Shown: positions 4,188 to 46,724 of the stretch, one piece after another
Numbering within the stretch: the first letter of the stretch is position 1
How the letters are laid out: each line of letters begins with the position of its first letter
Virus record (IMG/VR): IMGVR_UViG_3300028048_000198
Coordinates: 1 to 47,508 of that record
Source: a virus
Direction: 5' to 3' (one strand)
DNA length: 47,508 nucleotides
Translations under genes and position numbers: made by a program
Notes under the pieces: model-generated
What the model saw: the letters and a program-made list of their open reading frames with translations, nothing else
What the model was told of the DNA's origin: nothing
Databases searched by the model: none

Positions 4188-4469
4188 ATGAAAAATAGAT
4201 TTGATTTTATCAAAGAAAGTAAAGATATAGTAAGAAATTATGCTTATAAACATTTAGATGTGACTGATAATATAGAAAAGCAAGATTTTGATGTATATGT
4301 AGTTTGGTATGCTTATGAACTAGGAAATCAAAAAGCAATGATAAGCACCTCATTACTTGATGGAATGTACTATGAAGTTACATACAATATAAATAAAAAT
4401 GAAATATATCTTGATGCATACAAGAAGTTTGAGAATAAAGTTATAAATTTAAAGAAAGAAGGAGAATGA
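4188..4469 (+). CDS. Hypothetical protein (93 aa)
   Basis: SD gaaggagag 5 nt upstream. Confidence 0.65.
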   Translation: MKNRFDFIKESKDIVRNYAYKHLDVTDNIEKQDFDVYVVWYAYELGNQKAMISTSLLDGMYYEVTYNINKNEIYLDAYKKFENKVINLKKEGE

Positions 4470-4471
4470 TT

Positions 4472-9961: not shown

Positions 9962-9972
9962 TTATATCACCT

Positions 9973-11083: not shown

Positions 11084-11833
11084 CTATATCTTTTCTGAAT
11101 ATGTTATTCCATCTGAGCCCTTTATACATACATATCCACTAGGAGTTTTAGCCCATTTTCCATATTCATTATTAATTATTTCTAAAGCAGTATAAACTGT
11201 TCCTTTTTTATAAATTGCAGGAGCATTATCATCTGTAAAGTAAGCATTCTTTCTACCGTCATTTGTCATTTCACAAGTTTTCTTTATATCGTAGTTATCT
11301 CCTGCTCCATATCTTACATTCAAATTAAATAGTGTTCTATAATCTTTATTACCTATTTCTTCTCCAGTATATTTTGCAACCTCTGCTTTTGTTATACCAA
11401 AATAGTCATAAGGATTATCCCAAAAGTTGTCATTGCCTTTTCTTTCATCACCATGATAGTACCCATTTTGTCTGTTATCTAAGTGTATCCAACATGGTGT
11501 ATCTGTTGGAGCAATACCATTTAATTCTCCTAAATCCCATGCTACACACGATACTATTCCTGAAGGTATTGGATTTCCGTCTTTATCATAATAGCAACAA
11601 TCAGCAGCCAAACCTTCTGCATGGCGACCAACAAATCCACCTATTTGTATATCATAATCAGGACACCTATAACCACTTGAAATAATACATTTACTTGCTC
11701 TTAGTTTACTAAATATGTTTTCCATTTTGTTTACTAGGTTTTCATCAATTTTTATGTTTCCACAATGTTGACATTCAAATTCTGTACTGTGAAAATGTTC
11801 ACTTATATTTTGAGATTTTGTTATCATATGCAT
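11084..11833 (-). CDS. Endolysin: peptidase M15 (zinc D-Ala-D-Ala carboxypeptidase-like) plus C-terminal SH3-like wall-binding domain
   Basis: SGYRCPDYDIQIGGFVGRHAEGLAADC matches the M15 SGYR..N..vGG...S.H..G.A.D pattern. The C-terminus YRTLFNLNVRYGAG...GKWAKTPSGYVC is SH3b-like. Confidence 0.8.
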   Translation of the reverse strand: MHMITKSQNISEHFHSTEFECQHCGNIKIDENLVNKMENIFSKLRASKCIISSGYRCPDYDIQIGGFVGRHAEGLAADCCYYDKDGNPIPSGIVSCVAWDLGELNGIAPTDTPCWIHLDNRQNGYYHGDERKGNDNFWDNPYDYFGITKAEVAKYTGEEIGNKDYRTLFNLNVRYGAGDNYDIKKTCEMTNDGRKNAYFTDDNAPAIYKKGTVYTALEIINNEYGKWAKTPSGYVCIKGSDGITYSEKI

Positions 11834-11883
11834 ACACCATCCTTTTCAATTTTATTCCATTTGTAATAAGTTATTACAACATA

Positions 11884-11912
11884 ATTATAGCATAGTTCTT
11901 TTATTTTTTCAA
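11884..11912 (-). promoter_or_regulatory. Consensus sigma-A promoter directly upstream of the endolysin gene
   Basis: Minus strand TTGAAA-17-TGcTATAAT; the -35 overlaps the last codons of the XhlA-like gene. Confidence 0.6.
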
Positions 11913-12191
11913 GCCAATCATTACAGCTACAGCACCTATAACTAGGCTTATAACTGATGTTATTATATAATTGACAATACTGTCATATCTTTTAATAGGT
12001 TTTTCTTCTAGAGCCTTAAGTCTTTGCTCTGTTTTGTTTTGTTCTTCTCTCATGTACTTCATTTCAACAGCAAGTTTCTCAGTAGATATAGCAATATCTG
12101 TGATATTGTCAAAGATCTTATGCAGATCCTTGACATTACCTTTTAAATCTTCAAACTCTTGTCTAGTTACTTCACTTTTATATTCTTTCAT
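11901..12191 (-). CDS. xhlA: XhlA-like protein (N-terminal coiled coil, C-terminal TM anchor)
   Basis: Coiled coil EFEDLKGNVKDLHK...EQRLKALEE followed by the TM IVNYIITSVISLVIGAVAVMIGL. Position next to the endolysin is as in Firmicute phage lysis cassettes. Confidence 0.6.
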   Translation of the reverse strand: MKEYKSEVTRQEFEDLKGNVKDLHKIFDNITDIAISTEKLAVEMKYMREEQNKTEQRLKALEEKPIKRYDSIVNYIITSVISLVIGAVAVMIGLKK

Positions 12192-12207: not shown

Positions 12208-14820
12208 CTAAGCACTTTCAGCATTACCTAAATCTTCACAGTATGCTGTAATTTTTAGCCATCTATCTCCAACTTGACCTTTTCTCCATAGTTTTATAGG
12301 CATTACAGCACCAGTAGAATTATTAACGACTGTATCACAAACAATCTGTCTATAATGTGTTCCTGTCTCTGTAACATCTACTGTCACTTGCCAATCTGTG
12401 GTATCAGTATCTCCTTTTGTAATTTTAATAGATCTATCACCAGCACTATTGCTTTCAAATGAAGCAACAACTACTATTCTAAACATACCATTTTTATTTA
12501 GATTAAAGCCTATCAACTGATTGTTATCGTTTTTAAGACCTCTGACAGTCTCTCCATGTCTATAAATACCTTCTAATATCATATTTTCATAGGTTGTTCC
12601 AACAGGGTTATTTAACGAATTATTGTTAATTCTCATAAACATTTTACCCTCTTGGTATTCAACTCCATAAATGACATTAAGCAAATCTTTTCTTATTTGT
12701 TTATTTAATAACTGTTTCTGTTTAGATATTTCACCATATATATCGGCTCTTTCAGCATTAACAGTTTCTTTTTTTACATTAAAATTTACAGTTATTTTTC
12801 TATCTGTCGTACCATTGTCATCAATATTTCTATTAACCTTGTTTTCTTTAATATTTAAAGAAGCAGAGCCTCCACCATCTCCACGCCATGCTCTTACACA
12901 GCCTTTAGATTGCATAATAGCTAAGGCTTGTTCATTAGTTAAACCTGCATTATTATCTGTTCTACCGTCACAAGCAAGTATTATAATATCTCCATTTTCT
13001 TTTATACCGAAATCCATACGAGGACTTTCAGTTGTCCAATTAGGAACATCAGTGTGTTCTTCTAGTTCTCCATTATTCATGTACCTATAAAATACTAAAA
13101 ATGCATTTTTTACACCTGCATCTAACATTTGTTGTGCAGTTGTTTGATTTGCTTGAAATTCTAATAATTGTCTATCTTCTGTAAAACCTATATACACATT
13201 ATCATCTCTATATGTTATATCATTAGGAGCTTGGTTCAATATTTGTCCGTTTCCTATAACAATACCTTGTTTCCAAGTACCACCCTCATTTTGATAGGTT
13301 AAACCTGCATTTGTAGTTAATGTAGTTTTATTAGATATAGCGTATTCATTAGGTGTTTTATTGTCATCTTTATCAACATAAACATTTATCTGATTATTAC
13401 CATTATCGTATTTAGGGATGGTTGCTATATAACAATCTGTATGGTCATGTCTTTCTTCTACATAAGTTATTTCATCATAATAATTGCTATTATTAATCTG
13501 ATCACTTAACTCATATTTTGTGTTATATATTATGTCATTTGTTTCTTCTTTTGAATAAAAATCTCTATTAGTAATTGCGTATACCATATCTAAAGTAGGT
13601 AAAGCATTTGAACTTGTAATTTCAAAATTTGTTTCTTCGTTGTATAACAATATATTTCTTATAGCATTTAATTGATTTAATAAGGTGATATTAGTTATTT
13701 CTTCAATTACTGGTTCTTTTAAAACACAATACACAGTAACATTATTATTAGAAAGCCATGTTTTAAAATCAGCTAATACTGTATGAGTACCATCATAAAT
13801 ATATAACCCACTAACATCTGGATTTCTATAAGAAATACCTACAACATTATTCCATGTGTTTGTAGCACTAACTGCTTTAAAATGACTAGAAAGTATTGCA
13901 CTTACTGTAGAAGTTCCTGTTGTGTCTAAAATATTGCTAAGACCTATTTGAAAACGTTTACCATTTGAAGAATTTGTAATTTGCCAATTTTCTGTACCAT
14001 TAAAAATAAATTTTTTAATCTTTTTATATTTAAACCATTTATTGTTTTGGTAGTATATATAATCTTTATAAGTTCCTACCTTACAAAGTTCTATATCTCC
14101 TAGTGATAACAAAAATGTATTAGATAAGGTGTTGTCAGCATTTTTAATAGTTAAATTAACATCTCCCTTAACAACATACACGCTAACTGGATTAGTAGGA
14201 GATGGCGTAGTGGCTTGGCTAGAATTACCAAATATTTTATTTACTCTACTATAACCAGTTGTATTTTCTAGTTGTGTTTCGTTTTGTACCGTTCCTGTAT
14301 TGGTCATTTGTAAATTGTTTTCAGATAGAAAATCACTATCATTTTGTAAGTCGCTTATCTTTGTAGGAATATCATTAATATTAGCTTTTGCAGATAATGC
14401 TTCTTCTAAATCAGGAGTTATTTCTTCTATTACGTTACTAGCAGTATCACTAACGATTTGTTGTTGGTCTGCTTCAGTCCAATAGTCTACTCCCCTAACA
14501 GGAGCACTATATCCTGCAAATAGTGCATCCATATAGGCTTTTGCTTGTTGAGATGAAGGTATTTTGTTATCATCAGATTGTAGTTCTTCATCAATATATC
14601 TAGAAAGAGTTGCTCCATCTAATTTCTTAGCATTTCCAACAATTTTTCCACCATTTAATAATCTTTGAATATCGTAATAGTTTTCATTAATAGCAGTTTT
14701 TAATATACCTAACATCTGATTAATATCAGTATGCTGGTAAGTCTGACCATCTTTATAAGTAGGGTTTAAGTCTGTTTCACCTATTCTATTATATAGTTCA
14801 TTTTCTTCCATAATATTCAC
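12208..14820 (-). CDS. Tail fibre/spike (870 aa) with an internal phosphodiester-glycosidase (NAGPA/DUF2233-like) domain
   Basis: Fibre-type N-terminus (LNGGKIVGNAKKLDGA, ISDLQNDSDF). ILACDGRTDNNAGLTNEQALAIMQSKGCVRAWRGDGGGSASL matches the DGR...G.t..e.a......G...A.nLDGGGS signature. Confidence 0.7.
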   Translation of the reverse strand: MNIMEENELYNRIGETDLNPTYKDGQTYQHTDINQMLGILKTAINENYYDIQRLLNGGKIVGNAKKLDGATLSRYIDEELQSDDNKIPSSQQAKAYMDALFAGYSAPVRGVDYWTEADQQQIVSDTASNVIEEITPDLEEALSAKANINDIPTKISDLQNDSDFLSENNLQMTNTGTVQNETQLENTTGYSRVNKIFGNSSQATTPSPTNPVSVYVVKGDVNLTIKNADNTLSNTFLLSLGDIELCKVGTYKDYIYYQNNKWFKYKKIKKFIFNGTENWQITNSSNGKRFQIGLSNILDTTGTSTVSAILSSHFKAVSATNTWNNVVGISYRNPDVSGLYIYDGTHTVLADFKTWLSNNNVTVYCVLKEPVIEEITNITLLNQLNAIRNILLYNEETNFEITSSNALPTLDMVYAITNRDFYSKEETNDIIYNTKYELSDQINNSNYYDEITYVEERHDHTDCYIATIPKYDNGNNQINVYVDKDDNKTPNEYAISNKTTLTTNAGLTYQNEGGTWKQGIVIGNGQILNQAPNDITYRDDNVYIGFTEDRQLLEFQANQTTAQQMLDAGVKNAFLVFYRYMNNGELEEHTDVPNWTTESPRMDFGIKENGDIIILACDGRTDNNAGLTNEQALAIMQSKGCVRAWRGDGGGSASLNIKENKVNRNIDDNGTTDRKITVNFNVKKETVNAERADIYGEISKQKQLLNKQIRKDLLNVIYGVEYQEGKMFMRINNNSLNNPVGTTYENMILEGIYRHGETVRGLKNDNNQLIGFNLNKNGMFRIVVVASFESNSAGDRSIKITKGDTDTTDWQVTVDVTETGTHYRQIVCDTVVNNSTGAVMPIKLWRKGQVGDRWLKITAYCEDLGNAESA

Positions 14821-20366: not shown

Positions 20367-21392
20367 TTAGTTTTGTGAAGCAGGTTGACCAGCAACATCG
20401 CCTGACCAGTCATCTACATAAACATCAAATCCAGATGCAGAATAAACTCTTGTAATTGAAACTGGATCTGTTACTTTAGCACCAGTCCACATTTTATAAC
20501 CAAATGTAGCTTTTTGTGCTAGTGGATCGGCTTTATCAGCTGTAAATCCTGTATCATAGAACTTAACATTTCCATTTCCTAATTTAATAACCATATAAGG
20601 ATCTCTACCTAAAACATAAGAAGTGTATATGTTTACATCGCTTGAATTTGCAGCAACTGGACAAATTAAACTATCCATAAAATGCATTCCGTATGCTTTA
20701 TATTTAGCTAAAGTTCCTTGTTTAATAGGAGTATTTTCACCACCAGGTACTAACAATTTCTTTTCTAGAACTGGATCATCTAGTAAATCATTCATTACAT
20801 TTGGATGCATAACAACAGCGAAATCTCCACCAAATCTTCTGTGTCCTGTTCTATTGTGATTAGTCATAGATAATGAAACAACTCTAAGATCTTTAAGTGT
20901 TAAAACATCACTAGCATCAAGATCATTTACACCAGTGTTTCCAACACCTACAAAATATTCAGAAGCATCTGAAAAACTTTCAATTATGTTTCTTTCACGA
21001 ACTTCTGCTGCGTGTCTTGCTAATTCAGGTTGATAAATTGTTTTAATGTTATCAAAGTGAACATCAGCAGCAACATCTGTTTCTTCCATTACAACACCAT
21101 ATTGATTAACAACACCACTAACTTTGTGTGCTTCTGGTTTTAAAGCAGTTGGAGCAACACCTTCTGTTAATCTGTGTTTTCCTTGATTATCATAAGGAAT
21201 ATGATTATATCTTCGAACTGTATATGTTTTAGTACCTTCATGTAAAGGAATTGCAACCTCAGTACCTAATTCACTAAATACGAAATTTGATTTTTCCAAT
21301 TTGATCATTTCTAATATTCTTCTTGACCAATATTCAGCTTGGCTAATACCATTTCTTTGTAATACAGCCAATGTAGTATTTGCAGCAGCCAT
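20367..21392 (-). CDS. Major capsid protein (HK97 fold, N4-gp56-like family)
   Basis: 341 aa in the position after the scaffold gene. EYWSRRILE...TYTVRRYNHIP...LTEGVAP resembles the N4-gp56-type capsid N-terminal region. Confidence 0.75.
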   Translation of the reverse strand: MAAANTTLAVLQRNGISQAEYWSRRILEMIKLEKSNFVFSELGTEVAIPLHEGTKTYTVRRYNHIPYDNQGKHRLTEGVAPTALKPEAHKVSGVVNQYGVVMEETDVAADVHFDNIKTIYQPELARHAAEVRERNIIESFSDASEYFVGVGNTGVNDLDASDVLTLKDLRVVSLSMTNHNRTGHRRFGGDFAVVMHPNVMNDLLDDPVLEKKLLVPGGENTPIKQGTLAKYKAYGMHFMDSLICPVAANSSDVNIYTSYVLGRDPYMVIKLGNGNVKFYDTGFTADKADPLAQKATFGYKMWTGAKVTDPVSITRVYSASGFDVYVDDWSGDVAGQPASQN

Positions 21393-24543: not shown

Positions 24544-26115
24544 CTAATTAAGATTATACATACCTATTCCGTATGCTCCACCTTCACCCTCAGACAGAAA
24601 ATCACTTATATCTGTATCAGGTTTAAGTCTATTTATTAATGTATCCTTATTTAAAACAAGTTCAAGTCTATCTGTACTATAACATTCCTTGAAGTCTAAT
24701 GGTAAACCCATACACAAATACCTTAATGCATCCATCAAGTGGTTATTTCTATCTACTGGGTCATCTGATTGAATACCATCTTTATCAGTTTTCCAAACAT
24801 ATTTACCAGCTTCTTCTTTAAGATTAACACAACTTGTAAAAAATTTAAGTTTTCCTAAATACATAAAATCTCTTACTCTATCTATACCATCTTGTATATC
24901 ATTATTTCCTTCTTCTAGCCAAATACCACTGACTTGATAGAAGTATTGTTGATAACTAACACCATCTCTATCATTCCTATTTCTTACTGATGGATCGGCT
25001 TGTATTCCTTTATACATTCTAACACCATCAACCATTTCTTTAATTCTTCTAGCATGGAATGTTATTGCTTTTTGACTTTCATAATATTCATCATAGATAT
25101 AGCATATTCCAGTATTTGGATCTATAGCACCACAACATAAACAAGTAGCATCAGACCAACCCTTATCAAATCCAAATATTCTTAACCAGTTGCTTGGTAT
25201 AGGGAAAGGATCAACTATATTATCTACAAATTCAGGATAAACAGCACCCTCTTTGACTTCAAGATAACAATAAATATATTTTCTTATCCATTTTTCACTC
25301 TTACCAACACAAGTATCTGCAATAAATGTGCTAGGCAAGTATTTATTATCAACAGATGCAGATAAGAATGAATGGTATGAACTTTCAGGTCTTTTAGTCT
25401 TAAGTTTATCATAAGACGATGTATCTACACTTTTACTAGCAAATATCTTACCAGACCTTAATAGGAACTCATCTCTTATCCAGCCTTCTTCTGGGTTACT
25501 TTCTACAATACCCATGAACTTATGTTCTATCTCATAACCAGCTTTATCTTTAACAACAGCAGCCCTATTTCTCAAACGAGTTTGTAATTGTGTAAAAATA
25601 TTGTATGCGACACCAGATGCTTCTATTATCCAGAAAGCTGTAAGGTTCAATGACCTTATTTTTTCTTCATCATTACTTGCATATACTACAATCTCATGAC
25701 CATTAGTCAATGTATATTTTGGTAATGGAGTTTTTGTTTGTTTAAGTATAAACCATGGAGGTAAAAATTTCTCTAATTCTGGAAGTACAGCCTCTCTAAC
25801 TTGTTGTAATGACTGAGCTGTTATAAGAGTTCTACCATTAGCTACATCAAATGCATGGTTTGAAATTTCATCAGCTCCCATAGTAGTTTTACCAGAACCA
25901 TACCCACCAATATTTAATCTAAATTTTGCTTTTGATTTATGAAAATTAACTTGGTGAGGGGCAGGTTTATAATCAATAAGAGTTGCTAAGCAAGTATCAC
26001 ATCTACCATAGAACACGCTCTCATGTACTTTAATTTCTCCACCACATAGAGGACATTTATATAGTTTATATCCATCATCAGAATAACCTTTAAAAACTAA
26101 ATCATCAACATGCAT
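24544..26115 (-). CDS. terL: Terminase large subunit with N-terminal zinc-ribbon extension
   Basis: Walker A is GGYGSGKTT. The nuclease half includes DDPVDRNNHLMDALRY. The N-terminus contains CPLCGG...17 aa...CDTC. Confidence 0.85.
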   Translation of the reverse strand: MHVDDLVFKGYSDDGYKLYKCPLCGGEIKVHESVFYGRCDTCLATLIDYKPAPHQVNFHKSKAKFRLNIGGYGSGKTTMGADEISNHAFDVANGRTLITAQSLQQVREAVLPELEKFLPPWFILKQTKTPLPKYTLTNGHEIVVYASNDEEKIRSLNLTAFWIIEASGVAYNIFTQLQTRLRNRAAVVKDKAGYEIEHKFMGIVESNPEEGWIRDEFLLRSGKIFASKSVDTSSYDKLKTKRPESSYHSFLSASVDNKYLPSTFIADTCVGKSEKWIRKYIYCYLEVKEGAVYPEFVDNIVDPFPIPSNWLRIFGFDKGWSDATCLCCGAIDPNTGICYIYDEYYESQKAITFHARRIKEMVDGVRMYKGIQADPSVRNRNDRDGVSYQQYFYQVSGIWLEEGNNDIQDGIDRVRDFMYLGKLKFFTSCVNLKEEAGKYVWKTDKDGIQSDDPVDRNNHLMDALRYLCMGLPLDFKECYSTDRLELVLNKDTLINRLKPDTDISDFLSEGEGGAYGIGMYNLN

Positions 26116-26537
26116 TAGTCAAAATCCACCTTTTCAGGAATTCTAATCAATATTATGTTTGAATTATTAATAGCTGGACCTCTATTTTCCATAGACTTCT
26201 TAATGTTAACAGCATTTTTATCACCATCCATAAGTCCTTTATCAGCAACATTCATAATCTTTTCATCTCTGAACGATTGAATATATTTTCTAACTACAGG
26301 ATAGTTTAAGAATTCCTTCCAAGTATCCACACCTAAAGGTATAGTACTATTCATCTCTATTGAAGTCTTATTAATATTTTCATCAAATTTTTCCATAAAT
26401 AGAGTAGCAAGTGATATATAAGACATCCTTTGTTCTCTATTTTCTTTCTTTTTTAAGTTGTCATCATTCTTAATTAAATCTAGAAGAACATTTTGTTTTT
26501 TCTTAACATTCTTCTTTATTTTTTCTAATTCTTCCAT
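26115..26537 (-). CDS. terS: Terminase small subunit candidate
   Basis: 140-aa ORF whose stop overlaps the TerL start. It is the first gene after a terminator-promoter pair. The call is positional. Confidence 0.55.
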   Translation of the reverse strand: MEELEKIKKNVKKKQNVLLDLIKNDDNLKKKENREQRMSYISLATLFMEKFDENINKTSIEMNSTIPLGVDTWKEFLNYPVVRKYIQSFRDEKIMNVADKGLMDGDKNAVNIKKSMENRGPAINNSNIILIRIPEKVDFD

Positions 26538-26562
26538 ATCTTCACCACCAGTTTCTATATAA

Positions 26563-26591
26563 ATTATATACCATATTTAAAAATTTTACAA
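26563..26591 (-). promoter_or_regulatory. Sigma-A-type promoter for the packaging/head genes
   Basis: Minus strand TTGTAA-17-TATAAT, 25 nt upstream of the terS ATG. Confidence 0.55.
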
Positions 26592-26592
26592 C

Positions 26593-26618
26593 AATAAAAG
26601 GGAGTATTAAATACTCCC
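26593..26618 (-). terminator. Rho-independent terminator (second of two after the accessory cassette)
   Basis: Minus strand gggagtat-tta-atactccc followed by ttttatt. Confidence 0.7.
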
Positions 26619-26713
26619 AACCAGTTGAAATGGAATTGATGATGCAACCGAGTACTAAAATATAAATATTAATACTCACATTTATTATATAATATATTTT
26701 ATTAAAAGTAAAC

Positions 26714-26743
26714 AAAAAAGTAGATTAAGTGCACTTAATCTAC
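26714..26743 (-). terminator. Rho-independent terminator (first of two after the accessory cassette)
   Basis: Perfect 24-nt palindrome gtagattaagtg|cacttaatctac followed by tttttt on the minus strand. Confidence 0.75.
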
Positions 26744-26901
26744 CGAATAAAAAGGAGCAGTTAGAATAACCAAAAAATAGTATCACACATAGTTATAAGG
26801 GGGAGTGGTGAACACCTAATGAAAAAACATAGTTACCCTAACATAATAATTATAACTCTAAAAATAAATTTTGTAAATACCTAAAATAAAAAAGACTATT
26901 T

Positions 26902-27264
26902 CTAGCCTTTATCTATTAGCCATGCACATCTCATAATTCTTTCTGACGGATCAAAAGTATCATAAATAACTCCATTTATTATTGCTGTTATATGATTATT
27001 CATTGTAACAGCATATTTACCAAACGGATGTTCTTCTGCGAATTCTCCAACACTTTTTGAATAATGACATTCTCTAGGGTATCTATCATCTAGATAGTCC
27101 TCTACGAATTCTACATTATCTGTCATATATCCATCTTTAGAGGAGAAATGTGCAAGTTCTCTATAAACACTTTCCCAACTTCTATCAGTAAGCAAAGACA
27201 AGCTGCGAATTACGCAATCTTCAATATCCCTATTCTTAGGATTTCTATTATAATATCTATACAT
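26902..27264 (-). CDS. Small papain/C39-like cysteine peptidase-fold protein (120 aa)
   Basis: Candidate nucleophile in IEDCVIRSLS. HITAIINGVIYDTFDPSE resembles the C39 H-x(10,11)-D-x-x-DP arrangement. Confidence 0.5.
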   Translation of the reverse strand: MYRYYNRNPKNRDIEDCVIRSLSLLTDRSWESVYRELAHFSSKDGYMTDNVEFVEDYLDDRYPRECHYSKSVGEFAEEHPFGKYAVTMNNHITAIINGVIYDTFDPSERIMRCAWLIDKG

Positions 27265-27728
27265 TAATTCATTAATTCTTTAGCTTTATTAAAATATTTC
27301 TTTACAATTTCTTGTTCTTCTGGAGAAGTTGCTGTTTCTTTAATGTATTTCATTAACTTGTAGTTATAGTGTAGCATACTTTCCAAATCTTTTAAGCCAT
27401 CTTCCTTAGCTCCGTAGTTTCCACGAGCATTAAACTCGTTTCTATCTTCTTCGTAAGCTTCATAGCTTCCTCTCATACCATCCATGTAACCTGATGCTCT
27501 ATATTTAGCATCTACACCTCTACGACCATATTCACCATAGTTACCATAAGCATTGTATGCTCCATATCCTCTACCATATTCATTTCCATATCCATTCATA
27601 TTTTCTACCTCCTTTAAGTCTTTATAAATATCTACAACTTTAAACAATTCATCCTTATCCACAGTATGGAATTCTTGTTTACCTTTCTTTTCAATGTAAT
27701 CTTCAACCTTCTTTATTATCTCTTCCAC
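27264..27728 (-). CDS. Hypothetical protein with a central Tyr/Gly/Arg-rich low-complexity segment (154 aa)
   Basis: NGYGNEYGRGYGAYNAYGNYGEYGRRG...SGYMDGMRGSYEAY flanked by helical ends; the stop overlaps the next start. Confidence 0.6.
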   Translation of the reverse strand: MEEIIKKVEDYIEKKGKQEFHTVDKDELFKVVDIYKDLKEVENMNGYGNEYGRGYGAYNAYGNYGEYGRRGVDAKYRASGYMDGMRGSYEAYEEDRNEFNARGNYGAKEDGLKDLESMLHYNYKLMKYIKETATSPEEQEIVKKYFNKAKELMN

Positions 27729-27732
27729 AGGA

Positions 27733-27918
27733 TCACTTCCCTTCTTTTAGAAGTCTGATTATTTCTTTATTCTGGTCTATAATAGTTTCCAAATAATCTT
27801 TATTCTGATGCTGAAACTCTCTCATTAAGTCTTTATTGTTATAATCTTTCAACAATATCTCTAAATCTATTACTTGTAAAAGTAAAGATAAATTATCTAT
27901 TGTATTAATACATCTCAT
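27733..27918 (-). CDS. Hypothetical helical protein (61 aa)
   Basis: ORF packed between neighbours (1-4 nt gaps). Confidence 0.5.
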   Translation of the reverse strand: MRCINTIDNLSLLLQVIDLEILLKDYNNKDLMREFQHQNKDYLETIIDQNKEIIRLLKEGK

Positions 27919-27919
27919 A

Positions 27920-28378
27920 TTATAACTTCTTTATTGTAAAGTTAGCACTTTGAATTATTGGTGTTTCTGTTTCTATTGCAACACCTGTTGATAAGTTTGG
28001 AACACTTGGTACTGATGCTACAGTTATATTAGCATCTGCTCTGCAACAAACTTCTATAGTTTTTGAAAATGAAACATTTTCTGGAACTCCAACAGTTGTT
28101 ATTTCAGTTGTAACAGTTGTACCTGGTACTAAAACACCATCTTGATATAGTCCTAAAGCTACACTTCCTGCTGTTGCACTTGAAACATTAGCATTAAAAT
28201 TTACTTCATAGTAACCACCTTTTACTATTTGGTATAATGGATTACCTTGATTATGGCACAACCATCCATTACAGTTGTTTTGACAAGCACTACGAGTTCT
28301 TATTGTATCATTTGTAAAAGTTATAGCACTTGAGTTATTAGTTAGAGCTAAAGGTAATTCTTGTACACTCTCTATCAT
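27920..28378 (-). CDS. BclA-C-terminal / C1q-TNF-like jelly-roll protein (152 aa)
   Basis: GGYYEVNFNANVSSATAGSVALGLYQDGVLVPGTTV resembles BclA-CTD GFYKITVIANTATASVLGGLTIQVNGVPVPGTG. Strong SD gaaaggagag. No collagen-like stalk. Confidence 0.5.
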   Translation of the reverse strand: MIESVQELPLALTNNSSAITFTNDTIRTRSACQNNCNGWLCHNQGNPLYQIVKGGYYEVNFNANVSSATAGSVALGLYQDGVLVPGTTVTTEITTVGVPENVSFSKTIEVCCRADANITVASVPSVPNLSTGVAIETETPIIQSANFTIKKL

Positions 28379-28477
28379 ATTATCTCTCCTTTCAATTACA
28401 TAATTTCAACAATTTAATGTTAAATTTTGCAGTTTTTATGCAAAAAATTAGATTTAATTGTGAATTTTGAATAATTA

Positions 28478-28507
28478 AATAAAAGAGGATAGAACTATGC
28501 TATCCTC
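28478..28507 (-). terminator. Rho-independent terminator after the 291-aa gene
   Basis: Minus strand gaggatag-catagtt-ctatcctc followed by ttttattt. Confidence 0.7.
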
Positions 28508-28508
28508 C

Positions 28509-28535
28509 GTTAAGTACTGTTAAGTACCGTTAAAC
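28509..28535. repeat. 2.5 tandem copies of a 10-nt unit GTTAAGTACN
   Basis: gttaagtact gttaagtacc gttaaac, lying between the 291-aa stop and its terminator. Confidence 0.8.
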
Positions 28536-28577
28536 TAGCAAGTTCCTGTTATCAGGCTAGTAGTAATCTACCATTGC

Positions 28578-29453
28578 TTAAATAAATTGACTTGATCCGT
28601 TGCATCCACATCCATTGTTGTTACAAGTGAATATTGGAGTACGTCCATATACTGGAGTTGATGGAACAGGGCAACTAGAAAGTCTATTGTATAATTGATC
28701 TACCTCATTAGCGAACCCTTGTGCAATGAATGCATTTTGAGCTGTTTGAGATTTGTCTAGACTTAACATTAAGTTTTGTCTTTCAAGATCACTTATCTTA
28801 TCGTTCTTAGCATCTATCTCTAATTGACATAATTTATCAAGGATAGCCTGAGTATTAGCTGTAGCATTAGTAATAATATCTCTAGTATTATTAGCATCAG
28901 CAAATCTAGTTTGGTTACCTTCATTTTGAACTATGTTTTGAGTTTGACAAGTTGCTAGACGATTTTCACAGCAGCAATTATCTAATGATTTTTGTAAACC
29001 ATTAAATCCTTGAAGTGTTGCGATTTGGTTACTGAAGTTTTGGTTCATGTTAGCCATTTGTCTATTAGCAGCAGCTATCTCAGAATTGTAGAAACCGTTT
29101 GAAACAGTTTGTTGCATATCTGCACAGCAGTTACAAAGTTGATTACTTAAACTTGCTACACCATCTCGTACACCTTCGATTTGATTTGACAAATGTAAAG
29201 TATCAAAACCATTGTTAGTATTAGTATTAATACCTTGTTGACCGTTTAATAGCCATGGGAACTCATACATCATACCAGCTCCTGCTCCACCACCGAAGCC
29301 ACCAAATCCACCCCAGCCACCGTTACCTAACATACCTAAAGCGATAATACCTAAGATCCACTCTCCCATATTACCACCCCAGCCATTGTTACCGTTGTTA
29401 GCACCGATGTCTACTGTTGGAATTATTCCGTTTCCGTTCATATATCTCACCAC
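28578..29453 (-). CDS. Membrane-anchored Gly-zipper / Cys-cluster / Gln-Asn-rich coiled-coil protein (291 aa)
   Basis: N-terminus GEWILGIIALGMLGNGGWGGFGGFGGGAGAG. Cys clusters are LCNCCAD, DNCCCENRLATC and TCNNNGCGCNG. Long Q/N-rich helical segments. Confidence 0.65.
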   Translation of the reverse strand: MVRYMNGNGIIPTVDIGANNGNNGWGGNMGEWILGIIALGMLGNGGWGGFGGFGGGAGAGMMYEFPWLLNGQQGINTNTNNGFDTLHLSNQIEGVRDGVASLSNQLCNCCADMQQTVSNGFYNSEIAAANRQMANMNQNFSNQIATLQGFNGLQKSLDNCCCENRLATCQTQNIVQNEGNQTRFADANNTRDIITNATANTQAILDKLCQLEIDAKNDKISDLERQNLMLSLDKSQTAQNAFIAQGFANEVDQLYNRLSSCPVPSTPVYGRTPIFTCNNNGCGCNGSSQFI

Positions 29454-29492
29454 CTTCCTAAAATCTATATATCAAACACTATGTGTTGATAC

Positions 29493-29717
29493 CTAACTTG
29501 AAAGTAGGTTTTCTATTTGGTTTATCTGCTCATCAGAGTAACCAAACCTTCTTGCAAAAGTATAAAGCTTTTGTCTTTGCTCAGGACTTTGTTTACCTAA
29601 AGTGTTCCTAAGCATTGCTTCTGGAGTACTATTCTTCTTCATTTGCTCCAGTTGGTTGTATTGGTTGGGATACTGAGCCCTTAGTTGCTGTATTATCCCT
29701 TGACTTATTTGGTTCAT
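29493..29717 (-). CDS. Hypothetical protein (74 aa), overlaps the upstream gene by 89 nt
   Basis: ATG at 29717 is preceded by the strong SD gaaggag 7 nt upstream, and that SD lies inside the upstream ORF. Confidence 0.5.
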   Translation of the reverse strand: MNQISQGIIQQLRAQYPNQYNQLEQMKKNSTPEAMLRNTLGKQSPEQRQKLYTFARRFGYSDEQINQIENLLSS

Positions 29718-30093
29718 TTCTTATCTCCTTCTTAAGATCTTCTAGTTCTTTCTTTAATGCGTCAATCTGCAAGTCCTTCTCATCCTTAGGTATAAACTCT
29801 TCTAGAAGATAAGTCTTAACACTACCTGTCGGAGTTTTATACCACATATTAGTAAATGCTTTATTCACGAACAAAGTATCTACAAATATCATCTCCCGTT
29901 TTACATCGTCTATGCTCTCAGCATATCTAATACCTTGTCCACCTGGACCTGTTTGAATAGTCTGGTTAAGTATCGTAGGCTGAGAATATTGTGTTTGCAT
30001 CTTTTGTCTTTCTAACTCTGCAATCTTATTCCTCTCCTCTTGAATTTGTCTATCATAATTCATTATCTGAGGATTATAATTCATTCCGTACAT
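29629..30093 (-). CDS. Hypothetical protein (154 aa) with N-terminal coiled coil
   Basis: ATG at 30093 with SD aaaggaaggga (the track start at 30096 is TTG); low-complexity tail. Confidence 0.6.
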   Translation of the reverse strand: MYGMNYNPQIMNYDRQIQEERNKIAELERQKMQTQYSQPTILNQTIQTGPGGQGIRYAESIDDVKREMIFVDTLFVNKAFTNMWYKTPTGSVKTYLLEEFIPKDEKDLQIDALKKELEDLKKEIRNEPNKSRDNTATKGSVSQPIQPTGANEEE

Positions 30094-30130
30094 CAAATTC
30101 CCTTCCTTTCTGTAGTTATTATCTCATAAT

Positions 30131-30161
30131 AAAAAAGAGGTAAAGTCCTAACTTTACACTC
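30131..30161 (-). terminator. Terminator/attenuator directly after the HTH regulator gene
   Basis: Minus strand gag(t)gtaaag-ttaggac-ctttacctc followed by ttttttatt; overlaps the stop codon. Confidence 0.6.
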
Positions 30162-30465
30162 TTTTTGTACACATTTTATCCACCATTTGCTTCTTCTCCA
30201 TGAGGGTAGTAACTCTCTTTGGGTAGAAAGTAGGGTTACTATATTGTAAATAGTCATACTTCTTTCTAATGCTAGAAATAGTATTGTTAATAGTAGTTCT
30301 AGAAACATGGAACTCTAAAGCCATTTTAGTAATAGTCCATTTATCTCTTTCCCATACTCTAGCATGTAATACCTTAAGTTCAATGTCTGACAAGATTGCA
30401 TCACCTACGAACTTATTATATAGCTCCTTAGTCCAAGGTATTTGATTTTTAATTGATTTTCCCAT
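30154..30465 (-). CDS. Small sigma-70-region-4 / LuxR-type HTH regulator (103 aa), candidate late-gene regulator
   Basis: LSDIELKVLHARVWERDKWTITKMALEFHVSRTTINNTISSIRKKY fits the L(T/S)..E..vl......G.s..eiA..l.vS..TV......i..K pattern. Confidence 0.65.
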   Translation of the reverse strand: MGKSIKNQIPWTKELYNKFVGDAILSDIELKVLHARVWERDKWTITKMALEFHVSRTTINNTISSIRKKYDYLQYSNPTFYPKRVTTLMEKKQMVDKMCTKRV

Positions 30466-30485
30466 TTCCTCAACTCCCTTTTGAT

Positions 30486-30514
30486 ATTATAGAGGGAGGT
30501 GGATTTTATTTCAA
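30486..30514 (-). promoter_or_regulatory. Consensus sigma-A promoter for the HTH regulator (leftward early promoter)
   Basis: Minus strand TTGAAA-17-TATAAT, 20 nt upstream of the ATG; SD gggag. Confidence 0.7.
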
Positions 30515-30563
30515 GATTTTTTGGTAGATATTAAAAATTTTTAGTAGAGAGATTTTTTGTAGG
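30515..30563. repeat. Three copies of ATTTTTnGTAG(A/G) upstream of the leftward promoter
   Basis: gattttttggtaga, aaatttttagtaga and gattttttgtagg; the GTAG cores are at 30524, 30544 and 30559. Confidence 0.7.
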
Positions 30564-30570
30564 TTTATGA

Positions 30571-30630
30571 ACACCACAACACACACGAAGTCTTTGTGTA
30601 CAAAACACACCATTCAAACCCCACCCCCCA
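30571..30630. other. C/A-rich compositional island in an otherwise AT-rich spacer
   Basis: acaccacaacacacacgaag...caaaacacaccattcaaaccccacccccca. Confidence 0.8.
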
Positions 30631-30712
30631 TGTTTTTATATTAATAACTTTTTTAACTTTTTTATAATTAATTAATACGAACAGTTGTTTGTTTATTCAA
30701 AGTTTATAAAAA

Positions 30713-30748
30713 TGTTATTAATATTATTAATGTTATTAATGTTATAGG
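30713..30748. repeat. Four tandem 9-mers TGTTATTAA (iteron-like)
   Basis: tgttattaa tattattaa tgttattaa tgttatagg. The related GTTAT(T/C)(A/G)A motif recurs in both orientations between 30640 and 31290. Confidence 0.8.
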
Positions 30749-31010
30749 TCAATTATAAAAAAGTTATTAATAAAACATTGATTTTTCCCCATATCTTTGA
30801 TAACTTTCACAAAATAGGTTTTTTATAGTCAATATATAAGTATATTAATACTACTATCTAAACTATTTATATATAATATATAAAAAACACTTTCACGCGT
30901 AAATAAGTCTATTTCGGGAGATTTTAAGGTTTTATTGATAACTTTTTTATTTTTAGATAAAAGGTTAATTATAGTAAATAATAAAAATTATAAAAATTTT
31001 AAAAAAGTTA

Positions 31011-31039
31011 TTGACATTATTTTTCGTTTATGATAAGAT
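31011..31039 (+). promoter_or_regulatory. Early promoter P1 (sigma-A, extended -10)
   Basis: TTGACA-17-TGaTAAGAT preceded by the A-tract attttaaaaaagttat. Confidence 0.7.
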
Positions 31040-31126
31040 TATATTGTCAACAGGACAGAGCACCTAGAAACAAACAACCTAGAAAAAACAAAAATATTAA
31101 AAATTATATAAATTTTAAAAAAGTTA

Positions 31127-31155
31127 TTGACTTTATAAAAATTATATGTTATCAT
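31127..31155 (+). promoter_or_regulatory. Early promoter P2 (sigma-A, extended -10)
   Basis: TTGACT-17-TGtTATCAT with the same upstream block aattttaaaaaagttat. Confidence 0.7.
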
Positions 31156-31283
31156 TAATATGTCAACGAGTTGGTGGCGTGTGTATACGGACTAGTTTAA
31201 TCCTACCAAGGAACTAAGGAAAGCACGAAATTTAAAATTGACAAAATAAAATAATATAAATTTTAAAAAAGTTAAAAAAGTTA

Positions 31284-31312
31284 TTGACATTATAAAATTT
31301 ATATGATACAAT
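31284..31312 (+). promoter_or_regulatory. Early promoter P3 (sigma-A, extended -10)
   Basis: TTGACA-17-TGaTACAAT with the same upstream block aattttaaaaaagtta(aaaaagtta)t. Confidence 0.75.
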
Positions 31313-31319
31313 GTATACA

Positions 31320-31724
31320 ACAACAAACGAAGAGCCAAAAAAAATTAATCGGTTAAACTACACCATAAAAGACAGTAGACAGAGTGACTTCTGTCTAGAT
31401 ATAAAGATTGATATTTGACAAGTACTATAATGTGAAAATAAGCAAACGACATTTAGTCAAGTCGCCGATGCTTGTGAGTAATATATGTAGAGTATAGAAA
31501 CGGGACTTAATAGGAATAACTTTGTATTAGGGCTATGACAGTGATAGAACGCCCTAGGATAAAACCTTTTAAGTATTGCCGTAAACTTTGTAAGCAAGCA
31601 CGGTTTATCAGTGGAAACTGATAAATCTAGGAGCATGAAACGGATCTAATTGGGTGAAGTGTTTCTAGATTTGTTAGTTTCCAAGACTAACAAGTCCATA
31701 GAATAGGTATAGGAGGGATAAAAT
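31320..31724 (+). promoter_or_regulatory. About 400-nt structured, ORF-free 5' leader of the early operon (candidate cis-regulatory or processed RNA)
   Basis: GC is visibly higher than in the flanks. Serial hairpins at 31376-31397, 31528-31556, 31578-31604, 31605-31624, 31623-31672 (12 bp) and 31674-31692, then SD aggaggg. Confidence 0.45.
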
Positions 31725-32144
31725 ATGGATAAAAAATTGGAAAATATTAACAAATTATTATATGAAACAAAATTTAATTACAGTAGAAGTGAAAGCGATA
31801 TTGACTTATTCACACCTCAACACGTGAAATACAACTGTGAGTTGTCAAATAAAAATGGGGAATATTTATTTACTTATCAATGCAATCCAAAGTTTGTAAA
31901 AATAACAAAAGAAAGTGTGTTGGCTTGTGTATTAAGTGATGCTAGATGCTACCAAGATTGTGTAATAGGTAGCGAGGATGACACTATACAAGAATTCGCT
32001 AATATGTTTGGTTATGATAATATAAAAGAGTGTCTTAAAGCCTATAAAGGTTGTAAAAAAGCAAGTGAAAAACTTAATAAAATGTACACACAAGATGAAC
32101 AAGAAGCATTATATGACTATTTTGTAGAAAAAGGAGAAATTTAA
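31725..32144 (+). CDS. First early protein (139 aa, 7 Cys)
   Basis: SD aggaggg 8 nt upstream; no motif recognised. Confidence 0.7.
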   Translation: MDKKLENINKLLYETKFNYSRSESDIDLFTPQHVKYNCELSNKNGEYLFTYQCNPKFVKITKESVLACVLSDARCYQDCVIGSEDDTIQEFANMFGYDNIKECLKAYKGCKKASEKLNKMYTQDEQEALYDYFVEKGEI

Positions 32145-44833: not shown

Positions 44834-45330
44834 TGGTATTAGATGAAAAGGAGCTAGAAAAATATAAAACTCATCCTAGAGTTTTAGAAATAAGATTTAT
44901 TTTAATGTTTGATATGTTTGAGAAGGAACTTGGTTACCAACAAGCAACTAAGTCCTTCCAGGCTTTATGTAGTGCGTTTAATTGTAATATGACACTATTA
45001 CAAGCTATTATAAATAGGAGATTTGATATATTAAGAAAGTCAAAAACTAATTTTAGAAGATGGCGACAAGAAGTTGTATTTTCATCCTATGTTTATGGGG
45101 AAAGTATTTATAGAGTTGCTAAATATTACTTTAGAATTAAGCCAGAAGGTATATATGCACAAAAGGAACTCTATGATGTTAACAGATTTTTAACTAATGA
45201 ATGGCTAGATAAACTTGATGATAGTACAATATTGTGTGGAGAATATGCTTATAAAAATGAAGTTGTTAGATTTATGGAAATTATAGATAACATGGCTCTA
45301 ATACTAAAGAAGTGGAAAGGTGATGCTTAA
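44833..45330 (+). CDS. Hypothetical protein (165 aa) between the primase-helicase and polymerase genes
   Basis: TAATG coupling on both sides. Confidence 0.6.
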   Translation: MVLDEKELEKYKTHPRVLEIRFILMFDMFEKELGYQQATKSFQALCSAFNCNMTLLQAIINRRFDILRKSKTNFRRWRQEVVFSSYVYGESIYRVAKYYFRIKPEGIYAQKELYDVNRFLTNEWLDKLDDSTILCGEYAYKNEVVRFMEIIDNMALILKKWKGDA

Positions 45331-46724
45331 TGTTCTTATATCAGAAGTATAAATATAACTATAAACATTTAGATGTACATAATGATGCTGACATATCTTA
45401 TTTACAAGATTTAATACATAAAGCAGATAATGTACAACCTAATTATTTATATTACGATACTGAAACTGATGGATTACATATTATAACATCTAAACCATTC
45501 TTAGTATCATTTGGTTTTAAAAAAGATGATGTAAAAGAAGTTATAACTATGGATTATGATAAGGATATAATGAATTCATTTTGGAAAACAATATCTATAC
45601 AAAAGAATTTGAACAATAATCCAAATTATATAGGTGTAGGAGCACACAATGCTAAATATGATTATCACATGATGGAAAATGGGGGCAGTCCTATTCCAGA
45701 AAATATAGACTTGTTTGATAGTATTACAGTTGCTAGACTTACTGAATATGTTGATGAACACGCAAGTATGAGCCTAGAAACACTTGGTGGTAAATATGTT
45801 GATGAAGAAGCTAAGTTTGCTGGTAAAATTATTAAAGATATTATTAAAAAACTTAATGCTGAAAGAAGAAAACAACTTAGAGAAGATATTATGAACGCAT
45901 TTCCAGATGATGGATTTTTCACTATAACTAAGAGTGGTAAAAAGAAAGCAACAGGTAAACTATCTAAACTTATTGAGAACTATGATAAAACTAGAACACA
46001 GTTCTTAAACGATGATGATCCTTACTTCAAGTTTATTGATGAACACTATAGACCTGCTAGTTATAAAGATGTATATGAAAAAGAACCAGAATTAATGAGA
46101 AGTTATGCTGCTGATGATATTGTTATAGGTATAGAATATCTAGAAAAGGCTATGCCTACATTGTTAAAAGTTGATAAAGACTTAACCGTAACAAAAAGAG
46201 AAGGAAAACTTATTAGGGCTGTTGCTTGGATGGAAGATACAGGACTTAAAGTTGATGTAGATTATGTATTAAATTGTAGAAAGAATATGATAGCTTATAG
46301 AGATTTATTATACTTTGAACTACAAATGTACACAGGCGAAGAGTTCTCAGTAGGACAACATGAATTTATAAAGAAGTTATTATTAGCTAAATATAAAATA
46401 AAAACTGATAAAGCAGATGAAAAAGCACTAAAATATATTAGAGAACATTCTGATAATGAAGAAGTTAAAGATATTTGTTCTAATATACTAGAATTAAGAA
46501 CACTTGATAAATGGATTTCTACTTATGTTGACGGCAAACTTAATGCTGTTGTGAATGGTAGAATATATACAGATATAAATAATAATGGAGCTGTATCTGG
46601 TAGAGTTAGTTGTGATATGCAACAACAACCTAAGGAAGCACTATTTGATAGAGATGGTAATGAGTTATTCCACCCTAGAAGAATGTTTGTTTGTGATGAT
46701 GGTTTCTGTTTAGCATTTTGCGAT
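45330..46724 (+). CDS. Family-A DNA polymerase, exon 1 (3'-5' exonuclease domain and N-terminal part of the polymerase domain up to the motif-A Asp)
   Basis: Exo I is YYDTETDGL, Exo II is NAKYDYHMM and Exo III is YAADD. RRMFVCDDGFCLAFCD matches Taq IRRAFIAEEGWLLVALD. The in-frame stop 3 nt later belongs to the intron. Confidence 0.9.

Follow-up and report, generated by a model that had tools for sequence, protein, structure and literature searches.

A conserved, moron-like gene module carried by tailed phages of gut and rumen Bacillota

The IMG/VR virus record IMGVR_UViG_3300028048_000198 holds a phage genome of about 47.5 kb with a GC content of about 30%. The stretch analyzed here, called the window, covers positions 1 to 47,508 of that record. 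Between a small helix-turn-helix (HTH) gene and the packaging gene terS, seven open reading frames (ORFs) are found at 26902-30093. An earlier note had described them as a cassette of unknown function with its own terminators and a composition recalling spore-surface proteins. The seven ORFs are indeed present at these coordinates, co-directional on the minus strand, and all of them have homologues elsewhere. The cassette is a discrete unit, as had been claimed, but its extent was drawn too narrowly: the upstream HTH gene also belongs to it, and the fact that the whole is a widespread mobile module had been missed. In the order of transcription, the locus is organized as follows.

30486-30514, minus strand: sigma-70-like promoter (TTGAAA, 17-nt spacer, TATAAT, 11/12 matches), a consensus match only
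30154-30465, minus strand: p103, small HTH protein of the sigma-70-region-4 / GerE(LuxR) type, first gene of the module
30131-30161, minus strand: weak AT-rich hairpin with a T-run after the HTH gene, visible in the sequence and uncalled by the terminator scan
29629-30093/30096, minus strand: p155, 154 aa from the ATG at 30093
29493-29717, minus strand: p74, small Q/N/M-rich helical protein, with an AAGGAG ribosome-binding site
28578-29441/29453, minus strand: p291, 287 aa from the ATG at 29441, anchor gene of the module
28484-28508, minus strand: intrinsic terminator directly after p291, with a 9-bp stem and a T-run
27920-28378, minus strand: p152, predicted stand-alone TNF/C1q/BclA-C-like jelly-roll, devoid of signal peptide
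27733-27918, minus strand: p61, helical mini-protein
27264-27728, minus strand: p154, helical ends around a Tyr/Gly/Arg-rich low-complexity core
26902-27264, minus strand: p120, small putative papain-like enzyme, at the 3' end of the module in the window clade
26600-26877, minus strand: two short promoter-plus-terminator units between the module and terS

On a sheep-rumen contig that is 96-99% identical to the window, an independent gene caller predicted p103, p155, p291, p152, p154, p120 and the terS-like gene; p74 and p61, the smallest of the set, were the only ORFs that it left out. Both of these, as well as p155 and p154, recur at fixed positions in related loci.

The earlier note had found no assignable virion or lysis role for the seven proteins, and database searches agree: none of the seven matches a named virion, lysis or defense family. 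Scans of the window proteins against Pfam, NCBIfam and PADLOC gave nothing above threshold, and a Pfam scan of 110 divergent members of the p120, p155, p154 and p291 families gave no matches either. Against the PADLOC-DB defense models, no component was matched apart from one insignificant match of p61. None of the seven proteins received a functional PHROG assignment. The core proteins match function-less PHROG families (3754, 21718, 16490, 20016, and 28802), and among 150 module members structural PHROG annotation is limited to a single weak match to a minor-tail family. Sequence and profile searches of the PDB with p291, p120, p152, and p155 returned only coiled-coil or chance matches. At the nucleotide level, the cassette matched none of the phage records searched, and no Rfam family was found over 26000-31800. 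The module proteins are labeled hypothetical by the annotation pipeline PGAP and by the authors of one carrier, Butyrivibrio phage Ceridwen. Finally, no description of the module was found in the literature searched on Ceridwen, on phage-borne BclA/ExsFA or on TNF-like morons; a retracted paper on a BxpB isopeptide was left aside.

Conservation, carriers and transcription layout

The p291 alignment A3, which includes distant phage homologues, was scanned against one genome per prokaryotic species. This gave 80 loci, almost all in metagenome-assembled genomes (MAGs) of gut or rumen Bacillota and most on phage-sized contigs. The loci span Lachnospiraceae, Oscillospiraceae, Erysipelotrichaceae, and related MAGs. 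Iterative profile searches with the window proteins were made against all ORFs of 86 loci carrying a p291 homologue. p155 was detected in 79 of them, p152 in 70, p154 in 67, and p120 in 66; p103 homologues occupy the 5' end of the module in 48. Every match occupies its usual relative position and lies on the shared strand, a regularity that speaks against profile drift. Thus, p155 is always just upstream of the small ORF and p291, p152 directly follows p291, and p154 directly follows p152. The canonical co-directional order, HTH, p120, p155, p291, p152, p154, is identical in 41 loci and spans about 3.5 kb. With the small Q/N/M-rich ORF found between p155 and p291, the module comprises six to eight genes. 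p120 occupies the 3' end in the window clade; elsewhere it is the first gene after the HTH gene. Of the quartet of 291-, 152-, 154-, and 120-aa genes, which the earlier note had proposed to follow in other genomes, each partner of p291 is thus present in 66 or more of the 86 loci.

The site of insertion varies. Immediately upstream of the module, an endolysin is in most cases the largest ORF (PG_binding_1, CHAP, Amidase_2/3, GH25, M23, LysM, CW_7, or ELLD domains). Just downstream are integrases (12 of 65 loci), host genes such as mnmE, or early genes. In the cultured strain Vescimonas fastidiosa MM35, tail genes, a holin and an amidase precede the full module, and the host genes for lactate permease, ldh, miaB, and mutL/S follow it, so that the module is the last cargo of the integrated prophage. 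It is located after the endolysin in phage Ceridwen, between the minor and major capsid protein genes in Dulem virus 35, and before terS in the window and its relatives. The carriers also differ in virion type, Ceridwen being siphovirus-type and the window genome podovirus-type with a portal related to those of SU10 and P22. As a separate observation, AgrB homologues account for 2 of 65 upstream neighbors (alignment A4), which suggests that phage-borne agr-type quorum-sensing genes adjoin the module in some phages.

With its fixed internal order, variable insertion site, own regulator and own terminators, the module behaves like a moron, on a larger scale than usual. Like morons and lysogenic-conversion cassettes, it is an autonomous unit placed at module boundaries, most often at the junction between the endolysin and the integrase or host genes. 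It is found in three insertion contexts and carries its own terminators; its promoters are consensus matches only. In contrast with morons, it is far larger (six to eight genes in fixed order), carries a regulator, and is retained by a virulent phage as well, where it heads the late operon.

The earlier note had described the cassette as insulated by four terminators. A scan of the region found six terminator-like sites against 1.9 in shuffled sequences. Three of the four proposed sites were recovered (28508-28484, 26744-26719, and 26618-26600), but the hairpin at 30131-30161 was not called; it is possibly an attenuator or a terminator. Promoter-like matches in this AT-rich region are not above chance (31 found, 32.5 expected). 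This applies to the promoter proposed for terS at 26563-26591: the site is present (26591-26563) and conserved in a related locus, L008, but such matches occur at chance frequency. The promoter-like site at 30486-30514 precedes the HTH gene, in the spacer that separates it from divergently oriented sequence. Across the loci, terminator-like hairpins recur after the HTH gene (32/48), p291 (36/88), and p154 (23/68), and are never found after p155 (0/79) or p152 (0/71). Transcription units are therefore laid out in three conserved parts: the HTH gene; p120, p155, the small ORF, and p291; and p152, p61 where present, and p154.

The stretch at 26600-26877 forms the border of the module, to which it does not clearly belong. 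It contains two mini-units, one running from a promoter-like site at 26877-26849 to the terminator at 26744-26719, the other from 26712-26684 to the terminator at 26618-26600. Within 26715-26845, a region of about 130 nt on the minus strand folds better than all 200 of its shuffles (z = -3.6), and only its ends are conserved in L008. Non-coding positions 26600-26680 (minus strand) end in the terminator GGGAGTATTTAATACTCCC and are preceded by the conserved promoter-like site at 26712-26684. This segment has nearly the same nucleotide sequence in L008, where protein identity is only about 67%. It may encode a small RNA of some 80 nt or, lying just upstream of terS, may be a DNA element connected with packaging. 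A 57-aa ORF, p57 (26542-26715), crosses the conserved terminator hairpin and is therefore probably spurious and non-coding.

Proteins of the module

p291 displays a Gly/Asn/Trp-rich N-terminus, a short hydrophobic glycine-zipper anchor, and a long N/Q-rich, Lys-poor helical domain. The hydrophobic core is short and conserved (WWIILLLFLLL, for example) with Gly runs on both sides. In A3, a CCC triplet, a C-terminal CGC, the TRD of a TRDII motif, and both prolines of CP.P are invariant, and the remaining positions of TRDII and CP.P are at least 90% conserved. Family members contain a median of 11 Cys. These features agree with the membrane-anchored glycine-zipper and Cys-cluster protein proposed in the earlier note, as far as the N-terminal Gly-rich hydrophobic anchor can be predicted from sequence. 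p291 is the only module protein with a consistent N-terminal hydrophobic anchor. Some p152 and p61 members do have windows of high hydropathy, but these are internal and unlike signal peptides, and no signal peptides were found in the other module proteins. The anchor flanks are nearly neutral, their charges leaning weakly to an N-out/C-in orientation. The protein maps to phrog_16490 and has no Pfam, NCBIfam or PDB sequence match; 25 family members gave no NCBIfam or Pfam match either. The likeness of the membrane segment to YjcZ is compositional only. A role as holin, spanin, or anti-sigma factor is unlikely in view of the size of p291, the separate holin gene, the monoderm hosts, and the short Gly-rich N-terminus. 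Membership of a holin/lysis cassette was also rejected: a holin-like gene and an M15 endolysin are encoded elsewhere in the window, about 16 kb away from p291, which itself is about 290 aa long.

p155 consists of a Tyr/Pro/Gln-rich, prion-like low-complexity N-terminus, a core of about 55 residues with the motif WV.GE..AK.Y.V.PN..V.L.D....Y.K (alignment A8), and a C-terminal coiled coil. All ORFs of 120-320 aa in the loci were taken as background, and its 95th percentile is exceeded by the low-complexity window of 77 of 79 members. p155 maps to phrog_21718 and gave only coiled-coil noise against the PDB. Its gene overlaps that of p74 by 89 nt in a different frame (29629-29717, minus strand). 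p74 itself is detectable with a hidden Markov model in 22 loci. However, 76 of 79 loci have in its place, on the same strand, an ORF of 35-120 aa (median length 73.5 aa, 28% N+Q), so that the slot is universal despite sequence divergence. Within the overlap, the N-terminus of p74 (MNQ...) is conserved in relatives and the p155 tail encoded by the same DNA is not, which suggests that the tail is the overprinted part.

The AlphaFold (AF2) model of p152 is entirely beta (predicted local distance difference test, pLDDT, of 86) and, together with Foldseek comparisons, points to a ten-strand TNF-like jelly-roll. The best Foldseek matches in the PDB are BclA-C (E about 5e-8), the F-BclA tip of endospore appendages, BxpB (template modeling score, TM, of 0.68), and ExsFA. 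Probability is 1.0 for these proteins as well as for TNF ligands and the NC1 domain of collagen X. Lower-ranked matches include tail-fiber domains of cyanophages A4 and A-1(L), the spike knob of phi812, TNF ligands, and C1q-type domains. The BclA-C/C1q-like assignment of the earlier note is thus right at the level of the modeled fold, even if the Pfam match to BclA_C (PF18573) is far below the gathering score (19.2 bits for a cutoff of 38, E 1.2e-3). In alignment A1, Cys36 is conserved, Cys111 invariant, and Cys112 nearly invariant, the last two forming a VCC motif. A homologue search gave 841 matches, and there is a weak link to PHROG 20016 (E 7e-4). In tblastn searches of phage records, the window copy found no match; the more typical copy of Dulem virus 35 found 17 records, all unannotated or hypothetical.

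p152 shares its jelly-roll with BclA-C, BxpB, and ExsFA (E 5e-8 to 1e-5, TM 0.6-0.7). Like BxpB and ExsFA, it is a stand-alone, Cys-containing protein of about 150 aa, without signal peptide and encoded beside Cys-rich and low-complexity partners. However, its sequence similarity to these proteins is below threshold and it has no PDB sequence match. Unlike BclA, it lacks collagen-like repeats and an exosporium-targeting N-terminus: no GXX repeats or N-terminal targeting motif were seen in the sequence or in A1, which contain the jelly-roll only. Finally, in contrast with the exosporium proteins of Bacillus, it is phage-encoded, including in phages of non-sporulating hosts.

p154, which maps to phrog_28802, was correctly described as Tyr/Gly/Arg-rich, and this holds family-wide: the Y/G/R window exceeds the 95th percentile of the background in 65 of 68 members. 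p61, detected in 14 loci, is fused with p154 in a single ORF of 207-223 aa in L008 and in another relative, L014. It therefore corresponds to the split-off N-terminus of a long-form p154. The composition biases of the module proteins persist family-wide despite diverged sequences; the folded proteins p152 and p120 do not have them.

p120 had been called a C39/papain-like protein. Its AF2 model (pLDDT 90.8) is consistent with a papain-like fold. Cys17 starts a helix (17-26), His91 starts a strand (91-96), and the Asp follows two strands on, an arrangement that would fit the catalytic Cys and His of the papain-like topology. Cys17, His91, and Asp102 are invariant among close homologues (alignment A2) and at least 90% conserved across 66 divergent members. 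A C39 assignment, however, is not specifically supported. All structural matches in the PDB are weak (best E 0.44, TM up to 0.5); a good number belong to papain-like families, namely Tae4, Tse1, the C39 domain of ComA, Josephin, UfSP, viral deubiquitinases, and PaTox. The ComA peptidase domain (5xe8, E 0.96, TM 0.39; 3k8u, E 2.6, TM 0.43) scores like the other papain-like families. The Pfam families C39 and C39_2 matched neither the window protein nor 30 divergent members nor 23 long relatives, and a Pfam scan of these long relatives revealed no fused domains. No ABC transporter was found in the module or in recurrent flanking genes. The secreted-peptide system matured by a C39-like protein, offered as an alternative in the earlier note, is thus left with neither a transporter nor a Pfam C39 match.

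Against BFVD predicted viral structures, p120 strongly matches uncharacterized phage proteins (E to 1e-10, TM to 0.85). The family counts 549 matches and 2057 clusters at 50% identity, and corresponds to phrog_3754. p120 is probably, on the strength of its model, a papain-like member of a large unnamed phage-specific family rather than a C39 peptidase. It resembles papain-like peptidases, amidases, and deconjugases (C39 ComA, Tae4/Tse1, Josephin, UfSP) in its conserved Cys-His-Asp arrangement, and these dominate the weak matches. It differs from them in the lack of any significant or Pfam match, of an ABC transporter, and of a double-glycine peptide partner, and in belonging to a phage-specific family that also occurs alone. 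Lone homologues are found in Pseudomonas PAK_P1-like phages, large Bacillus phages, Geobacillus phage GBK2, and Prevotella Lak megaphages. In PAK_P1 and Bacillus phage Kirov, they belong to early or accessory arrays of small non-structural genes. Records with the lone gene number about 120 for Pseudomonas myoviruses and 15 for Prevotella Lak megaphages.

The HTH family is the only family of the module that reaches Pfam. Among 40 members scanned, 13 match Sigma70_r4, 9 r4_2, and 7 GerE (E <= 1e-3). The window copy, p103, matches only HTH_11 (E 1.2e-4, 22 bits for a cutoff of 25), and PHROG mapping gives families 36 and 5767 (regulator, sigma factor). A few members of about 180-190 aa, with extracytoplasmic function (ECF) or region-3 matches, resemble complete small sigma factors. 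As in stand-alone GerE or sigma-70 region 4 regulators, the module protein has about 70-100 aa and is essentially one region-4/LuxR-type HTH; the difference is that p103 remains below every Pfam threshold. It is the probable regulator of the module. A function as terS itself or as the general late activator is unlikely because, in temperate carriers, the gene is located after the lysin and not before terS.

Genomic setting in the window

The minus-strand late operon of the window runs from about 30465 down to 5166 and also encodes large tail proteins. Early and replication genes are on the plus strand (family-A DNA polymerase, primase, SNF2 helicase, Sak-like annealing protein) and no integrase was seen in the window, which is the genome of a virulent, podovirus-type phage. 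Nearly identical genomes come from sheep-rumen metagenomes. The landmarks outside the module are the following.

Within the late operon, minus strand: terS-like gene, following the cassette
24544-26115, minus strand: TerL, 523 aa
22431-24359, minus strand: portal, SU10/P22-type
20367-21392, minus strand: major capsid protein
11084-12191, minus strand: lysis pair, XhlA-like holin and M15 endolysin, separate from the cassette
1422-1727, plus strand: Spo0A_C protein, 101 aa, C-terminal DNA-binding effector domain only, without receiver domain

The Spo0A effector-domain homologue reported in the earlier note is above the gathering score (ORF 1422-1727, E = 9.4e-8, 32.4 bits for a cutoff of 25). 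A Spo0A effector without receiver could act constitutively on the host Spo0A regulon.

Several other features of this genome were recorded. The family-A polymerase is split on the plus strand: positions 45330-46730 encode the exonuclease together with the N-terminal portion of the polymerase, and positions 142-951 encode its C-terminal portion. An ORF at 46947-47465 (plus strand) lies between the two parts, and the window ends also fall there. This arrangement suggests that the window is a complete genome, circularly permuted, in which polA is split or interrupted. In a nearly identical sheep-rumen genome, L086, an HNH/NUMOD4 homing endonuclease is present at 9696-10232 between the terS-like gene and TerL. 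TerL is called there at 445 aa, and the counterpart region of the window (24544-26537) has no endonuclease. The 523-aa TerL of the window has an N-terminal zinc-ribbon-like extension (weak Lar/LysW-type matches). An 870-aa late protein (12208-14820, minus strand) carries an NAGPA phosphodiester-glycosidase domain (E 3.4e-15) and may be a tail-associated enzyme directed against a phosphodiester-linked cell-wall glycopolymer. Finally, a 152-aa protein (4466-4924, plus strand) contains a crAss001_48-related domain (PF21825, E 1.6e-22), although the phage is not crAss-like.

Possible roles of the module

We tentatively interpret the seven ORFs and the HTH gene as a conserved, horizontally mobile, self-regulated accessory operon, or large moron, of gut and rumen Bacillota tailed phages, whose products would form a non-virion assembly anchored in the membrane by p291. 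Gene content, order, sub-operon layout, variable insertion site, the fold of p152, and family-wide composition biases were obtained directly, and a fold class is suggested for p120. The evidence supports a module distinct from the machinery of packaging, virion, and lysis; with respect to lysis, the window has its own holin/endolysin pair elsewhere (11084-12191). Since the module is kept in a virulent genome with its own DNA polymerase, primase and helicase and no integrase seen, it should act during lytic growth.

A possible course of events can be drawn purely from the anatomy of the module. The sigma-region-4/GerE-like protein would switch on the downstream units. The glycine-zipper segment would insert p291 in the cytoplasmic membrane, probably N-out/C-in. 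On the cytoplasmic side, the helical domain of p291, rich in Cys and N/Q, would then seed an assembly, to be joined by p155 (prion-like through its Y/P/Q region), the Y/G/R-rich p154, and p152 as a putative TNF-like trimer, all without signal peptide. The Q/N/M-rich mini-protein might be a chaperone or an adaptor of p291, and p120, as a putative papain-like enzyme, might process, cross-link, or de-conjugate one component. The outcome would be a membrane-anchored, self-assembling protein layer altering the envelope of the infected cell or lysogen. Superinfection exclusion, receptor masking, or control of release are our favored guesses for the benefit.

Several points weigh against this interpretation. 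No member of the module has a characterized homologue, and physical association of the proteins is suggested by synteny and one fission/fusion pair (p61/p154) only. The link of p120 with the other genes may be looser than synteny suggests, since p120 occurs alone in many unrelated phages. The N-out/C-in topology of p291 is probable at best, because almost no charged residues are found on either side of the anchor. The background used for low complexity includes some non-genes, and host assignments of MAG contigs are unreliable. Finally, the late-operon orientation and the one placement in a head block are also compatible with a virion-associated role.

A related idea, unlikely as we see it, goes further and takes the module as a self-assembling material system. 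The products would make a coat- or condensate-like layer within infected gut Bacillota, a viral counterpart of spore-coat or exosporium assembly set up in vegetative cells independently of sporulation. Its parts would be p291 as anchor, p155, p154 and the mini-protein as prion-like, RGG- or YG-type components, p152 as a putative trimer, p120 as a cross-linking or processing enzyme, and a sigma-like switch. We give this assignment of parts the same low probability.

The module proteins could also be accessory virion components, with p152 trimers as head or tail decoration or an auxiliary receptor-binding knob, p291 as an ejection or membrane-penetration protein packed in the particle, and p155 and p154 as assembly scaffolds; p120 would act as a protease in maturation. 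In support, the module runs in the direction of the late genes and lies inside the head gene block in Dulem virus 35, and the p152 matches include the tail-fiber domains of cyanophages A4 and A-1(L) and the phi812 spike knob. Ejection proteins, moreover, often carry hydrophobic segments. However, the module has no conserved position with respect to structural genes, its usual slot being after the endolysin, by the integrase or host junction. It has its own regulator and terminators and is the same in very different virion types. In addition, stand-alone p120 homologues are found in non-structural regions, and the single weak minor-tail match is the only structural PHROG annotation. This role is thus unlikely, and the capsid decoration considered in the earlier note fits poorly with the variable position, the own regulator, and carriage by both sipho- and podo-type phages.

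We hold an undescribed phage-borne system for defense, abortive infection, or inter-phage competition to be no more probable than a virion role. Here, p291 would be a membrane-disrupting glycine-zipper effector, p152 a sensor binding a competitor's protein, p120 an activating protease, and the HTH protein the regulator. In favor of this, the module moves between phages and combines, over several genes, a regulator with a protease-like enzyme and a transmembrane protein; the end of prophages is, moreover, a known hotspot for defense and exclusion genes. On the other hand, no PADLOC model was matched and no nuclease, NTPase, TIR, SIR2, or similar domain is present. Three of the five core proteins have low-complexity, material-like regions, atypical of defense systems, and a virulent phage has kept the module as the first part of its late operon.

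The spore-surface idea of the earlier note, in which the module proteins would settle on the spore coat or exosporium of the host or interfere with it, or redirect sporulation with the phage Spo0A_C protein, reflects a real likeness in fold and composition. The best structural matches of p152 are the exosporium proteins BclA-C, F-BclA, BxpB, and ExsFA. The module proteins are, like coat proteins, without signal peptides, and they are rich in Cys, Tyr/Gly, and Gln/Asn. The regulator family matches GerE, the type of the 74-aa late coat-gene regulator, and the window encodes a Spo0A_C protein. By analogy only, coat proteases or the transglutaminase Tgl might be counterparts of an enzyme with a papain fold. 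However, the case is made by fold and composition only, and no protein passes a sporulation-family threshold (BclA_C, 19 bits for 38; no YjcZ or other NCBIfam match). The TNF/C1q fold is equally common in phage fiber tips and eukaryotic ligands, and GerE and sigma-region-4 HTHs are generic. The idea is weakened by two carriers of complete modules, a phage and a prophage, whose hosts do not form spores. Ceridwen is a phage of Butyrivibrio fibrisolvens, a non-sporulating species. The prophage of V. fastidiosa MM35 belongs to a genus described and genome-predicted as non-spore-forming (PMC11334427). The restriction to endospore-forming hosts expected of a coat or exosporium system is therefore not observed in these two carriers, and we consider a spore-surface or sporulation module very unlikely.

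Equally improbable is a factor made late and released by lysis to work outside the cell, comparable to clostridial toxin or bacteriocin loci under TcdR/UviA-type sigma factors, with a lectin-like p152 that might bind glycans, mucus, or competitor cells: the module does lie immediately downstream of holin and endolysin in most loci, with a sigma-like regulator (some members of about 180-190 aa with ECF or region-3 matches), proteins without signal peptides, and a predicted TNF/C1q-type binding fold in p152, but p291 would be membrane-anchored and not soluble, there is no toxin or bacteriocin domain and no C39/ABC export pair, and a long distance separates the module from the lysis genes of the window.

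As no known system shares its composition, we regard the module as new; its five core families were previously only function-less PHROG clusters. If the interpretation as a mobile, membrane-anchored accessory operon is true, it would rank among the more widespread uncharacterized modules of gut and rumen Bacillota phages, the p291 homologue search having given at least 8000 candidates. Because six to eight genes keep their order across positions and virion types, a strong, portable benefit during infection may be expected. Two cultured carriers are available, Ceridwen on B. fibrisolvens DSM 3071 and the prophage of V. fastidiosa MM35. Finding the role of the module would create a new functional category for phage annotation and give a role to five PHROG families. 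It could also reveal a new way for phages to remodel Gram-positive cell envelopes.

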